A DNA stretch of 64,000 nucleotides from Candidatus Parcubacteria bacterium (GTDB lineage: Bacteria; Patescibacteriota; Minisyncoccia; Phycocordibacterales; UBA2100). Both the position numbers and the translations under genes were made by a program. How positions within the stretch are numbered: the first letter of the stretch is position 1; the number at the start of each line of letters is the position of its first letter. The notes beneath the pieces are model-generated. The model was not told the origin of the DNA and ran no database searches. It saw nothing but the letters and a program-made list of their open reading frames with translations. The stretch lies in the NCBI GenBank assembly GCA_041168925.1, contig JBEEJY010000006.1, positions 2,859 to 66,858 of the forward strand, read 5' to 3'. This document shows positions 41,294 through 43,922 of this stretch, one piece after another.

Positions 41294-42175
41294 TTATACC
41301 GTACTCTCCCGTCCGGCAATATCTTTCTCCGAGTCGATGAAAGATTGAATGTCTCCTTCGAGCACATGCTCGACGTCGCGGCGCTCGTGTTCGGTGCGGT
41401 GATCTTTGACGAGCTGGTACGGATGGAGCACGTATGAGCGTATCTGACTTCCCCACTCGATCTTCGTCGAGGCGCCGGCAGATAGCCCGCGTGACTGATT
41501 GATCTGTGCGGTTTCCTTGAGCTGAAATAATTTTCCGCGAATCATCTCGAGCGCTTTTTCTCTATTTTGCGCCTGGCTCCTCTCGCTTGTAACGTGCACG
41601 GTGATGCCCGATGGCTTGTGCGTCATCCGTACCGCAGTATCGCGTTTGTTGACGTTTTGCCCGCCCGGGCCGCCAGAACGGGCGACCGTGATCTCAAGCT
41701 CGCTTTCTGGAACGTGCGTGTCGTCGACATCGGGAAGCCTCGGCAGTACCTCGACGAGCGAGAAGCTCGTTTGTCGCTTGCCGGCCGCGTTGAAAGGCGA
41801 CATGCGCACCAGCCGGTGCACCCCCGCTTCTTTTTTCAAACTGCCGTACGCGTCACGTCCGACCACTTCAAACGAAACACTTCGGTATCCGCCCAGCGAA
41901 TTCGCGTTCGAAGAAAGCAGCACTGTTCGCCAGTCGCGCGAGGCGGCGTATTTCCCGTACATTTCAAAAAGCATTCGTGAAAAATCTTCGGCGTCGTCGC
42001 CGCCTGCGCCGGAAATTATCGAGACAATGGCGTCTCCTTTGTCGTATTGCCCTACACCTGCGATCTTTGCCTTCAGCTCTTGGTACTCTTTCACGGCGGT
42101 CTGTGCCTTCTCCTTATCATTCCAAAAATCCGCGGAACCCATAGCAGCTTCTATCTCCGCGATTCTAATTTCCAT
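41294..42175 (-). CDS. prfB: Peptide chain release factor 2 (N-terminally short form)
   Basis: Contains the GGQ motif ([20 protein letters not shown]) and the SPF tripeptide (RMSPFNAAG), which marks RF2 rather than RF1. The ORF-track start at 42190 lies 1 nt from the tRNA-Thr 3' end, so the ATG at 42175 (MEIRIAEIE) is preferred. No +1 frameshift site is visible. Confidence 0.8.
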
Positions 42176-42191
42176 TTTTACTTTATCCATG

Positions 42192-42263
42192 AGCCGACCC
42201 GGGGAGTTGAACCCCGAACCTACGGTTTACGATACCGTTGCTCTACCATTGAGCTAGGTCGGC
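42192..42263 (-). tRNA. tRNA-Thr (anticodon CGU)
   Basis: Reverse complement GCCGACC-TA-GCTC-AATGGTA-GAGC-A-ACGGT-ATCGTAA-ACCGT-AGGTT-CGGGG-TTCAACT-CCCCG-GGTCGGC-T folds as a cloverleaf with anticodon CGT. CCA is not encoded. Confidence 0.8.
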
Positions 42264-42365: not shown

Positions 42366-42607
42366 AGCCGATGGCCGGAATTGAACCGGCGACCTACTCC
42401 TTCATTGCTACCTCCGTTTATGTATTATCGGAGGATTAGACTGTATATCCGACTCAACGAGTCGCTCTTGTCAGTCGTTCGGGCGCAAGCGCCACGGTCT
42501 GAACCTCGTACAGGCCTTTGACCGTTATTCGAGCGTGCAACAACAGATTGCTCTGTTGCGGGCAGTTGTCTACCATGGAGTTGCTCTACCAACTGAGCTA
42601 CATCGGC
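42366..42607 (-). tRNA. tRNA-Thr (anticodon GGU) interrupted by a 169-nt intron (42403..42571) in the anticodon loop between nt 36 and 37; candidate group I intron
   Basis: The 5' exon (42572..42607 reverse complement) is GCCGATG-TA-GCTC-AGTTGGTA-GAGC-A-ACTCC-ATGGT. The 3' exon (42366..42402 reverse complement) is AA-GGAGT-AGGTC-GCCGG-TTCAATT-CCGGC-CATCGGC-T. All four stems pair, and the variable loop AGGTC matches E. coli tRNA-Thr(GGU). The 5' exon ends in U and the insert ends in G, as group I splicing requires. The insert contains GGATATACAGTC, reminiscent of the P7 3' strand (GAUAUAGUC). Confidence 0.6.
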
Positions 42608-42609
42608 TT

Positions 42610-43260
42610 CTATGTACTTCCTTTGGCCACCCCTTCGATGGCATTGCAGAGAATATCACGAAGCTTCTTATTATTGAAATACACCGTGAGTATGCCGTAT
42701 CTGGTCTTCCGGCGGTAGTTGCCGATGCCGCGATGCGGCGTCACAACAATCGTGGGAAGAAATTGTTGGCGAGGAGCGCGAAGCAGGCGCATCCAATATC
42801 GTATGGCTTCAGTTTTGTTCATATCTCCGAAAATCTGAAGGCCGAAACGTAACTTCTTTGTTTGTATCCCATAACACTTCACCAAAAATTGTATGAATAT
42901 GCTAATAAGTTTCGGATCGCTATTCCCCAACCGAATCGAGCCTCTGTTCGCTTTAGTACCTTCACCCCAGTACAAGCCTATACCAATGCCGTACAAGATT
43001 GCTTCATTAATGGTTCGCGGAAAACTGACCTTGAAGGGGTCGCCGGCCGGATTCCACATTTCATATAAAGCATCGCTTATTGACCGTTTGGGAATCTTGA
43101 ACTTCGAGAGCCAGTAGTTCACCTGATGCTGCGAACATTTGAGTTGCTTCGCAATAGTTGATACCGACAATTTCTTTTCTTGATATAGCTTTAACAGCGT
43201 CCCCCTCCCAATCATTAGAGTAATATACCACGCTGTACCTAATCTACTGGATACTCCCAT
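42610..43260 (-). CDS. Low-GC ORF encoding an N-terminal helix-turn-helix plus a LAGLIDADG-like single-motif domain; candidate free-standing homing endonuclease
   Basis: The 216-aa ORF ends 2 nt upstream of the intron-containing tRNA-Thr 5' end. LSVSTIAKQLKCSQHQVNYWLSKFKI is HTH-like. EAILYGIGIGLYWGEGTKANRGSIRLGNSDPKLISIFIQFLVKCYGI resembles the LAGLIDADG helix plus the following beta strand (L.G..DGDGS.........I..). The segment is about 45% GC against about 60% for its flanks. Confidence 0.4.
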   Translation of the reverse strand: MGVSSRLGTAWYITLMIGRGTLLKLYQEKKLSVSTIAKQLKCSQHQVNYWLSKFKIPKRSISDALYEMWNPAGDPFKVSFPRTINEAILYGIGIGLYWGEGTKANRGSIRLGNSDPKLISIFIQFLVKCYGIQTKKLRFGLQIFGDMNKTEAIRYWMRLLRAPRQQFLPTIVVTPHRGIGNYRRKTRYGILTVYFNNKKLRDILCNAIEGVAKGST

Positions 43261-43922
43261 AATTCCTCGATAACCGGCGCAACCGCTTCATCGGTGATGT
43301 CTTCGGGCTTTATGGACGCATGCGCAAATATTTGCCGCTCCAGCTCATGACCGAGTTCCACGAGCGTTTCATAATCGTCCGGCGCAGCAATGACTCCACT
43401 CGCGAACGACACACCGACCTTACCATTGTTTTCCATACGAGCGAGGTATCTTTTCCGACCATCTTCCCAGCGCTCCCGCATCGAGCGCACGCCGTATGGT
43501 GTCACACGGGAGTCCGCATATTCGAGGATCTTTAGTTCGTAGGATCGACTTTCGACTATCCGCTGCATCTTTGCAAATCCGGTATCGCCAATGTATGCGA
43601 CAACTTGCTGCGGTAGCCCAATCTCTGCCGCGATCTTCATGCTCGCATGATGTTGCTCCTTGCCGTATTTTTTTTTGAAATCCATCTTCACGTGCTCCCA
43701 ATATTCACGCCCTTCTGGTTCAAGTGCCTCCGGGAATTTCGACAGGTCGAATTTCAAGATGTTGCCCATGTCGTGGAAAAGACATGCGAGCACTATTTCA
43801 TCGATATCAACGCTTCGCATGCTCTCGGCAATGATCTTTCCCACCGCAGCCACTCGCAGCTGATGTAGCCGCAGATTCGGCATGATGTCGTACGCTTCGT
43901 ATATCTCGCGCGCGGTGCGCAT
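43239..43922 (-). CDS. HD-domain phosphohydrolase
   Basis: The H...HD motif (LRLHQLRVAAVG...ACLFHDMGN) and later His/Asp residues fit this family. 227 aa. Confidence 0.75.
   Translation of the reverse strand: MRTAREIYEAYDIMPNLRLHQLRVAAVGKIIAESMRSVDIDEIVLACLFHDMGNILKFDLSKFPEALEPEGREYWEHVKMDFKKKYGKEQHHASMKIAAEIGLPQQVVAYIGDTGFAKMQRIVESRSYELKILEYADSRVTPYGVRSMRERWEDGRKRYLARMENNGKVGVSFASGVIAAPDDYETLVELGHELERQIFAHASIKPEDITDEAVAPVIEELWEYPVD

Follow-up and report, generated by a model that had tools for sequence, protein, structure and literature searches.

A free-standing helix-turn-helix protein with a LAGLIDADG-type domain, encoded at the 5′ edge of an intron-containing tRNA-Thr gene in Patescibacteria, as a candidate homing endonuclease

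Homing endonuclease genes are characterized by a conserved target site, by sporadic presence and by the existence of decayed copies. They are also found outside introns, an example being SegB of phage T4, a free-standing GIY-YIG gene within a tRNA gene cluster. In phage trans-homing pairs an endonuclease gene is associated with a separate intron; in cyanophage S-PM2 the free-standing F-CphI adjoins the psbA intron, and in phage T4 mobE is paired with the defunct I-TevIII intron. Collaborative homing has been defined for two phage systems (PMC3984707), and the concept is also treated elsewhere (PMC6083498; PMC2790892).

The tRNA introns of Patescibacteria were the subject of a 2026 survey, in which the homing endonuclease genes of bacterial tRNA introns are listed. 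The survey searched inside the introns only, found most of them to be without homing endonuclease genes, and took this to mean that their horizontal spread is limited (PMC13011429). The class of introns at site 36/37 of tRNA-Thr(GGU) is already published in that work; in Patescibacteria these introns escape the Rfam model RF00028, and only a bacterial tRNA-intron model detects them (PMC13011429, Table 1). Here, we describe a gene located just outside an intron of this class. In the window, by which we mean the whole 64,000-nucleotide stretch of Candidatus Parcubacteria DNA that was analysed, the gene and its neighbours are arranged as follows.

43239..43922, minus strand: HD-domain protein, the upstream neighbour, outside the element (Pfam HD, E = 3e-7)
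42610..43260, minus strand: maximal ORF of 216 aa (ORF list)
42610..43215, minus strand: probable CDS of a 201-aa protein with a helix-turn-helix and a single LAGLIDADG-type domain (NCBI protein P0001 and homologue starts)
42572..42607, minus strand: 5′ exon of tRNA-Thr(GGU), positions 1-36, ending in the anticodon GGU (sequence reading and exon-pairing script)
42403..42571, minus strand: group I intron without an ORF, 169 nt, at site 36/37 (U-1, omega-G and conserved core)
42366..42402, minus strand: 3′ exon of tRNA-Thr(GGU), positions 37-73, CCA not encoded (complementarity with the 5′ exon)
42191..42263, minus strand: intronless tRNA-Thr(CGU), the next gene downstream (ARAGORN and Rfam)
41294..42190: prfB, abutting tRNA-Thr(CGU)

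A first-pass annotation, made from the sequence alone, had singled out a free-standing 216-aa ORF that ends 2 nt before the 5′ exon of an intron-containing tRNA, and this arrangement is indeed present. The TAG stop codon occupies 42612..42610 and is followed by two letters, ‘aa’, before the exon begins at 42607. The ORF is the only copy of its family in the window. An identical protein from a Candidatus Parcubacteria MAG (NCBI P0001) is annotated at 201 aa, and aligned homologues begin at or near the equivalent of M16 of the 216-aa ORF; the CDS is therefore probably 42610..43215, in which case it does not overlap the HD gene, whose end lies at 43239. The overlap between the two genes that the first-pass annotation described is thus probably an artefact of choosing the longest ORF. 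A scan for promoters and terminators returned counts at the level of shuffled sequence, and on the minus strand none fell in the gaps that separate the HD gene, the ORF and the tRNA.

Two nucleotides past the stop codon, GCCGATGTAGCTCAGTTGGTAGAGCAACTCCATGGT forms the 5′ exon of tRNA-Thr(GGU), and the same exon was found downstream of the ORF in homologous loci. The 3′ exon restores the anticodon stem, the T arm and the acceptor stem, and in intronless form the window tRNA reads ...ACTCCATGGTAAGGAGT.... ARAGORN and Rfam RF00028 both overlook the split gene and its intron in the window. The intron contains the core CGAACGACUGACAAG...AUACAGUCUA, and is the shortest among the 54 unique introns of the Thr(GGU) 36/37 class that were compared. 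In an alignment of 45 homologous introns, compensatory changes were seen in 30 of the 48 predicted pairs, with covariation in P1, P2, P5, P6, P8 and P9, whilst the U.G wobble of P1 at the splice site was invariant, as were P4 and P7. These compensatory changes, together with the invariant wobble and core, identify the insert as a genuine group I intron without its own ORF, and confirm the proposed intron-bearing tRNA-Thr next to the gene, with both exons and the 169-nt insert at 36/37.

From its sequence, the protein had been suggested to combine an N-terminal helix-turn-helix with the layout of single-motif LAGLIDADG enzymes. The corresponding features are:

43054..43215, minus strand: N-terminal helix-turn-helix, residues ~1-54 of the 201-aa form
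42619..43020, minus strand: predicted LAGLIDADG-fold domain, residues ~66-199 of the 201-aa form
42952..43002, minus strand: LAGLIDADG-like motif helix AILYGIGIGLYWGEGTK, with the invariant residues (helix 69-85 of the model)
42963..42961, minus strand: codon of Glu85, a putative metal-binding residue at the end of the motif helix

The helix-turn-helix is borne out by a Pfam HTH_23 match (E = 2.7e-5, aa 21-54 of the 216-aa form) and by an AlphaFold2 model built from 35 relatives (pLDDT 86.5), which places an N-terminal module of three to four helices ahead of a C-terminal alpha/beta domain. The helix-turn-helix itself best matched the corresponding segments of two PHROG families whose annotation is phage HNH endonuclease. 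In the C-terminal domain, the motif region of the window protein reads ..LYGIGIGLYWGEGTK, and the helix AILYGIGIGLYWGEG terminates in a Glu that is invariant in the 35 relatives, as are G76, G78, the run G80-L-Y-W-G-E-G86 and K88; in the model, helix 69-85 ends at Glu85. The best fold matches of the model are LAGLIDADG endonucleases or LAGLIDADG_3 domains (the TliVMA intein, I-DmoI and I-Tsp061I), followed at lower Z by PI-PfuI, I-CeuI, I-Vdi141I and I-CvuI.

Curated models were far less informative. Pfam LAGLIDADG_1, LAGLIDADG_2 and LAGLIDADG_3 gave zero matches to the window protein at E <= 10, and LAGLIDADG_3 was matched weakly by 6 of the 35 relatives (best E = 0.038); searches for a nuclease family in Pfam, NCBIfam and PDB, with the single sequence and with a profile, returned helix-turn-helix matches or noise only. 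An hhalign comparison with one Pfam-positive protein, which has a helix-turn-helix and a LAGLIDADG_3 domain and is encoded at the same genomic site elsewhere, reached E = 0.0013 and paired helix-turn-helix with helix-turn-helix and motif with motif. According to DSSP, the order of elements in the model is a-b-a-b-a-b-b-a, with an extra helix relative to the textbook LAGLIDADG order a-b-b-a-b-b-a, the core of which bears a DNA-binding beta saddle, and this counts against a homing endonuclease. In view of the non-textbook order and the lack of a Pfam match, we describe the protein as LAGLIDADG-type by fold and motif, not by curated models. The HMM and structural comparisons that had been recommended therefore gave a divided answer, in which HTH_23 and the fold matches speak for the suggested layout whilst the LAGLIDADG Pfam models remain silent. 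Overall, the model and the motif support a protein predicted to consist of a helix-turn-helix and a single LAGLIDADG-type domain, with an acidic residue closing the motif helix.

The window protein has 692 relatives at E <= 0.001, whose named sources are Patescibacteria, Parcubacteria, Adlerbacteria or plain ‘bacterium’, and which are annotated as ‘hypothetical’, ‘DUF3606’ or ‘HTH’. The family is present in at least 310 species-level genomes, and the nearest relative found in a search of 5.8 billion proteins is 68% identical. In all 81 non-duplicate loci examined the ORF occupies a constant position, outside introns and inteins and with a tRNA-Thr gene immediately 3′ of it. The two genes overlap by 10 nt in 34 of 75 loci, where the stop codon of the ORF coincides with U8-A9-G10 of the tRNA and the ORF end, K-P-M-stop, is read from A|GCCGAUGUAG. 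Divergent members adjoin other tRNA genes, namely an intron-containing tRNA-Tyr(GUA) at L205, where the ORF runs through the exon into the intron, an intronless tRNA-Thr(UGU) at L214, an intronless tRNA-Val(GAC) at L215 and an intronless tRNA-Thr(CGU) at L032. The family is thus one of Patescibacteria, unnamed in Pfam and NCBIfam, whose members flank tRNA genes on the 5′ side, in most cases tRNA-Thr(GGU). We found no description of this gene family, or of its tie to tRNA 5′ flanks, in the literature searched.

Direct repeats flanking the ORF were looked for, and most candidates proved spurious. The majority of tRNA-like matches upstream of the ORF are complete tRNA genes located nearby (Thr(UGU) and Tyr, for example); a true tRNA 5′-half fragment upstream of the ORF occurs in L205 only, and short duplications in L044, L061 and L204.

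At a GC content of 0.453, the ORF is the lowest of all in the window, where 53 long ORFs average 0.562 +/- 0.026. The first-pass annotation had been accurate on the ORF, at about 45% GC, but had put its surroundings at about 60% instead of about 56%. Around half of the deficit comes from an amino-acid composition rich in Lys, Ile, Asn and Tyr (expected GC 0.512), and the remainder is synonymous (GC3 0.537 against an expected 0.667, z = -4.1). The low GC content had been read as a sign of recent horizontal acquisition, an interpretation that did not survive comparison with other loci. In every one of the 80 homologous loci that had over 1.5 kb of flanking sequence, the ORF exceeds its surroundings in AT content (mean difference, 8.7 points), and in 53 of 57 loci its GC3 falls 12 points below that of neighbouring genes; across the 80 loci the GC of the ORF tracks that of the host (r = 0.72, slope 0.71). 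The genomic context is also shared, as 11 related loci also have the HD gene immediately before the ORF, and the order HD - ORF - tRNA-Thr(GGU) - tRNA-Thr(CGU) - prfB - ftsE - ftsX recurs in close relatives. Low GC is therefore a family-wide trait and no sign of recent acquisition in the window genome, and the universal AT-richness, the GC tracking, the shared synteny and a nearest relative at 68% identity together argue against the recent transfer that had been proposed. What stands of the composition and codon analysis is that the ORF is atypical, not that it records a recent event.

The gene is long resident and has been inherited mostly vertically. Clusters of the ORF broadly agree with taxonomy labels, and ORF distances correlate with those of PrfB (Mantel r = 0.37, p = 2e-4), in a test that cannot separate vertical descent from occasional transfer because ORF distances saturate near 0.5. 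There are outliers, for example L032 and L155, which are 82% identical in PrfB and 52% identical in the ORF. With 50-68% identity across classes and many invariant residues, the protein is unusually well conserved for the product of a selfish gene, and no near-identical copies in distant hosts were seen among the relatives found; both observations count against a selfish element.

Strong conservation and mostly vertical descent are what a domesticated protein would show, and the gene could in principle encode a WhiA-like combination of LAGLIDADG and helix-turn-helix domains that does not cut DNA but is inherited vertically as a regulator of the tRNA-Thr/prfB unit or in some other host function. 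WhiA, a domesticated transcription factor of Gram-positive bacteria that is found almost throughout its lineages, combines two degenerate LAGLIDADG domains with a C-terminal helix-turn-helix and no longer has the catalytic acidic residues. In contrast, the window family has one domain, an N-terminal helix-turn-helix, a conserved motif Glu where the sites of WhiA are degenerate, and a sporadic distribution that takes in only some 310 species-level genomes. The gene is also dispensable, being absent from 55% and decayed in 10% of the intron-bearing tRNA-Thr(GGU) loci described below, and other nuclease genes substitute for it at the same site. Furthermore, its synonymous sites are shifted towards AT, a bias consistent with weakly selected or selfish genes. 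We therefore regard domestication as unlikely, whilst giving it more weight than the other two alternatives discussed below.

The relationship between the ORF and the intron was approached from both sides. Amongst the 81 loci that carry the ORF, 56 (69%) contain an intron of 169-229 nt and 25 contain none. Conversely, a metagenome scan with a conserved intron-core pattern yielded, once redundancy was removed, 86 tRNA-Thr(GGU) loci that bear the intron and extend 700 nt or more upstream, of which 30 (35%) have a full ORF, 9 (10%) have a partial or decayed one and 47 (55%) have no same-strand copy, an inverted family member being present in one of the latter (L174). Three of the four possible combinations of ORF and intron were seen, in scans that could not retrieve loci without both. 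One UPGMA cluster is intronless (L074, L079, L052, L066, L073, L022 and L084, most labelled Peribacteria), and another, with several Saccharibacteria-labelled records, mixes intron-bearing and intronless loci. The comparison of loci across genomes thus upheld the expectation that ORF and intron can each be present or absent without the other. The intron frequency of 69% in ORF-bearing loci nevertheless compares with 3 of 95 complete Patescibacteria genomes (PMC13011429, Table 1), as raw counts uncorrected for phylogeny. The ORF and the intron vary independently, yet they co-occur.

Co-occurrence far above the base rate might also be expected of a maturase-like splicing cofactor, encoded beside the intron and aiding the folding of a very small tRNA-Thr intron. 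Some LAGLIDADG proteins are maturases (see PMC3984707), and none of the introns compared in its class is smaller than that of the window (169 nt). An obligate maturase is ruled out by the 47 of 86 intron-bearing loci without the ORF, and a facultative role is also very improbable. The ORF is present at 25 loci that have no intron for it to assist, family members adjoin intronless Thr(UGU), Val(GAC) and Thr(CGU) genes, and other tRNA introns of Patescibacteria self-splice in vitro (PMC13011429). Maturases are typified by being encoded inside their own intron, and this ORF lies outside.

Several loci retain decayed copies without the catalytic core that still have their 3′ end beside the tRNA. 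The remnant at L160 keeps the helix-turn-helix and the last 30 codons, the LAGLIDADG core having gone, and that at L094 is similar; at L089 the first 92 codons are missing, and at L187 only the last 28 codons are left, and the homology with the ORF-bearing L193 begins some 76 nt ahead of the tRNA. When the family is grouped into 60 clusters at 50% identity, the shared motif is [LA][GA].[GAM]L[YF][WLI][GA]EG.K, and its Glu is retained in ~51 of the 60 (~85%). Such common decay, the loss of the motif Glu from ~15% of clusters and the atypical codon usage would all suit an inactive relic, in which a gene that once encoded a homing endonuclease has stayed open by chance or under weak selection. 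However, the copy in the window has kept its full length and all the residues that do not vary in the family, and invariant positions across hundreds of species imply purifying selection on the protein, which makes a relic improbable, though less so than a maturase. As the window copy is full length and its motif intact, the protein may be active, to judge from its sequence.

Other nuclease genes occupy the same site. A two-motif LAGLIDADG_3 gene reads into the tRNA on the same strand at L180, an intron-bearing locus without the family ORF, and at the intron-bearing L198 another is found on the other strand, 49 nt ahead of the tRNA (Pfam E = 3e-11 and 8e-14, respectively); small GIY-YIG genes take this position in the intron-bearing loci L093, L126 and L200 (E = 1e-14 to 7e-16). 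The site is a nuclease hotspot, which the family shares with two-motif LAGLIDADG_3 and GIY-YIG genes. Between L093, with its GIY-YIG gene, and L114, with the family ORF, DNA identity is ~80% from the first base of the tRNA onward and there is none upstream. A clean empty site with both boundaries was sought and none was found: in the ORF-less loci L201 and L093 homology to ORF-bearing loci sets in exactly at tRNA base 1 and the genes upstream are different ones, so that the downstream boundary alone is defined. Likewise, the search for a within-species pair differing in presence or absence, or for a conversion tract, recovered solely identical duplicates or pairs of <= 80% identity.

Taken together, the LAGLIDADG-type domain, a helix-turn-helix of the kind seen in the phage HNH families, the fixed site, the sporadic presence, the decay, the replacement by other nucleases and the atypical codons favour a homing endonuclease. 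On balance, we think that the window protein is probably a free-standing, single-motif LAGLIDADG-type homing endonuclease with an N-terminal helix-turn-helix, possibly cooperating with the intron, a view that draws on sequence comparison and a predicted structure and is held with no great margin of confidence. The first-pass annotation had arrived at the same candidate; the fold, the sporadic presence, the decay and the sharing of the site sustain that part of its proposal, whereas its suggestion of a recent arrival has to be given up.

Single-motif LAGLIDADG enzymes act as homodimers and cleave specific sites to leave 4-nt 3′ overhangs. If the protein is such an enzyme, it would be expected to dimerize through the glycine-rich motif helix, and the dimer would bind the conserved DNA of the tRNA-Thr gene with the assistance of the helix-turn-helix. 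Alleles without the ORF would then be cut, plausibly within the pseudo-palindromic DNA of the anticodon arm near site 36/37; this insertion site lies 36 nt from the ORF, and the pseudo-palindromic arm could be read by a homodimeric enzyme. Repair from an ORF-bearing chromosome would copy the ORF and, when present, the adjacent ORF-less intron, in a form of collaborative or trans homing. By analogy with the phage pairs, collaborative homing, an idea raised by the first-pass annotation, would fit the co-occurrence of ORF and intron. The carrier chromosome may be shielded from its own enzyme by the intron or by changes in the anticodon stem.

The alleles at the target offer some agreement with this scheme. 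Intron-bearing alleles have the anticodon-stem end CC..GG in 37 of 38 cases, against 5 of 24 ORF-bearing intronless alleles, as would be expected if changes in the stem give immunity; the other 19 of the 24 differ in two stem pairs next to the loop (example stem ends from ORF-bearing intronless genomes are ACGCAATGGTAATGCGT). The five remaining ORF-bearing intronless loci share the anticodon arm of spliced intron alleles, and a simple model in which the target is the intronless anticodon arm does not explain these apparently ‘sensitive’ alleles. The fuller proposal, that this is the first cellular case of collaborative homing, with anticodon-arm DNA as its target, immunity conferred by intron or stem variants, and the tRNA 5′ flank serving as a landing pad for several endonuclease families, is accordingly put forward as a tentative one, which we consider possible but clearly less probable than the endonuclease itself.

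The 2026 survey looked within the introns. Of the tRNA-Thr(GGU) introns, between roughly one third and one half have an endonuclease-like gene just outside, placed 36 nt before the insertion site. Were the protein a selfish endonuclease, the view of these tRNA introns as being without a mobility partner would need to be revised. Were it to cut intronless alleles, it would provide a mobility route for tRNA-Thr introns, carry collaborative homing beyond phages into bacterial chromosomes and tRNA genes, and capture a proposed intermediate in the origin of mobile introns, in which the nuclease is beside the intron and not yet inside it. Should the 5′ flank act as a landing pad, this would explain the spread and persistence of ‘HEG-less’ tRNA introns. 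The family would also represent a compact new LAGLIDADG scaffold with a helix-turn-helix clamp and a naturally conserved target in a tRNA gene.

Of the described systems, the closest to the protein itself are single-motif enzymes of the I-CreI/I-CeuI type and the LAGLIDADG_3 domains of intein and archaeal intron endonucleases. The window protein shares with them one LAGLIDADG-type domain, in which a helix rich in small residues and ending in G-E-G is followed by a beta sheet; in the superfamily, the acidic residue that closes this helix binds the catalytic metal. The window gene differs from single-motif LAGLIDADG enzymes in its location outside an intron or intein, its N-terminal helix-turn-helix, its lack of a Pfam LAGLIDADG match and its extra predicted helix. 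Enzymes of the I-CpaI/I-SspI type and SegB are, in the same way, nucleases centred on tRNA genes, but they belong to other enzyme families and another type of host, and those of the I-CpaI/I-SspI type are encoded inside introns. The arrangement of the locus resembles the phage pairs, as in both cases the two elements vary independently and co-occur. The phage pairs, however, involve protein-coding genes and Endo VII-like or HNH enzymes, whereas the putative pair in the window resides in a cellular chromosome, at a tRNA gene, with a LAGLIDADG-type protein. To this set of systems, our work adds a new LAGLIDADG-type family with an N-terminal helix-turn-helix, free-standing beside a tRNA intron in a cellular genome.

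The 5′ flank of tRNA-Thr(GGU) looks like a landing pad common to several nuclease families. In five loci from outside the window, tRNA-Thr(GGU) carries an intron and the family ORF, the free-standing gene for an HTH protein with a single LAGLIDADG-type motif, is missing. The equivalent upstream spot is occupied by canonical two-motif LAGLIDADG_3 genes in L180 and L198 (Pfam, 3e-11 and 8e-14), and by small GIY-YIG genes in L093, L126 and L200 (1e-14 to 7e-16).

L180: LAGLIDADG_3 gene (Pfam), oriented with the 3′ end of the ORF within the tRNA
L198: LAGLIDADG_3 gene (Pfam), 49 nt 5′ of the tRNA, on the opposite strand

The family ORF itself often runs into the tRNA. In 34 of the 75 homologous loci, the 3′-terminal 10 nt of the ORF, including its stop codon, double as the 5′-terminal 10 nt of the tRNA, as in the following examples.

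L001, 4603-4612: 10-nt ORF/tRNA overlap
L004, 4609-4618: 10-nt ORF/tRNA overlap

If an overlapping ORF and tRNA were co-transcribed, cleavage at the tRNA 5′ end by RNase P would leave the mRNA without its stop codon, and this could couple expression of the nuclease to tRNA processing or trans-translation. The window itself holds an extremely compact run comprising the HD-domain protein gene, the family ORF, two tRNAs, prfB, ftsE and ftsX, in which no spacer separates the last base of tRNA-Thr(CGU) (42191..42263) from the prfB start codon at 42190 on the minus strand. The run from the HD-domain gene through ftsX is probably a single transcription unit.

A divergent family member, P0256, lies 5′ of a tRNA-Tyr(GUA) with an intron at position 35/36 in locus L205. 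Its ORF continues across the tRNA-Tyr 5′ exon and into the intron, and just 5′ of the ORF start lies an incomplete duplicate of the 5′ half of tRNA-Tyr, which stops at about the anticodon loop and may be the scar of a one-sided (illegitimate) insertion. Short duplicates of tRNA 3′ or 5′ ends also stand beside intact genes in L001, L205, L044, L061 and L204, and suggest that recombination or integration repeatedly hit the loci bearing them.

L205, 2457-2497 and 3102-3412: ORF/tRNA-Tyr arrangement with the partial tRNA-Tyr copy
L205, ~2425-2450: duplicated tRNA-end piece
L001, 4849-4886 and 4990-5011: duplicated tRNA-end pieces
L044 and L061, between ORF and tRNA: duplicated tRNA-end pieces

Whole clusters are rearranged in two loci. 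L214 (555-1598) reads Thr(GGU), Tyr(GUA), ORF, Thr(UGU), Tyr(GUA), Thr(GGU), and the members of each pair, Tyr(GUA) and Thr(GGU), are unlike in sequence; it looks as though a resident tRNA cluster had received a foreign tRNA/ORF block. The order in L032 (2676-3700) is intron-containing tRNA-Thr(GGU), ORF, tRNA-Thr(CGU), prfB, so that the family ORF adjoins the CGU isoacceptor instead of tRNA-Thr(GGU); between L032 and L155, PrfB is 82% identical, but the family ORFs only 52%.

Units much like the N-terminal module of the family also occur in proteins without a LAGLIDADG domain: P0127, P0133, P0143-P0145 and others (400-820 aa) are made up of 6-14 tandem HTH copies.

ARAGORN made no call for the intron-containing tRNA-Thr(GGU), either at 42366-42607 of the window or in L001-L004, which are four related loci, and automated annotation would state that the window organism has a genome without tRNA-Thr(GGU). 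A search of the window with the group I intron model RF00028 gave no match at E <= 1; in this the window intron is unlike that of the L205 tRNA-Tyr(GUA), which the same model scored at 83 bits.
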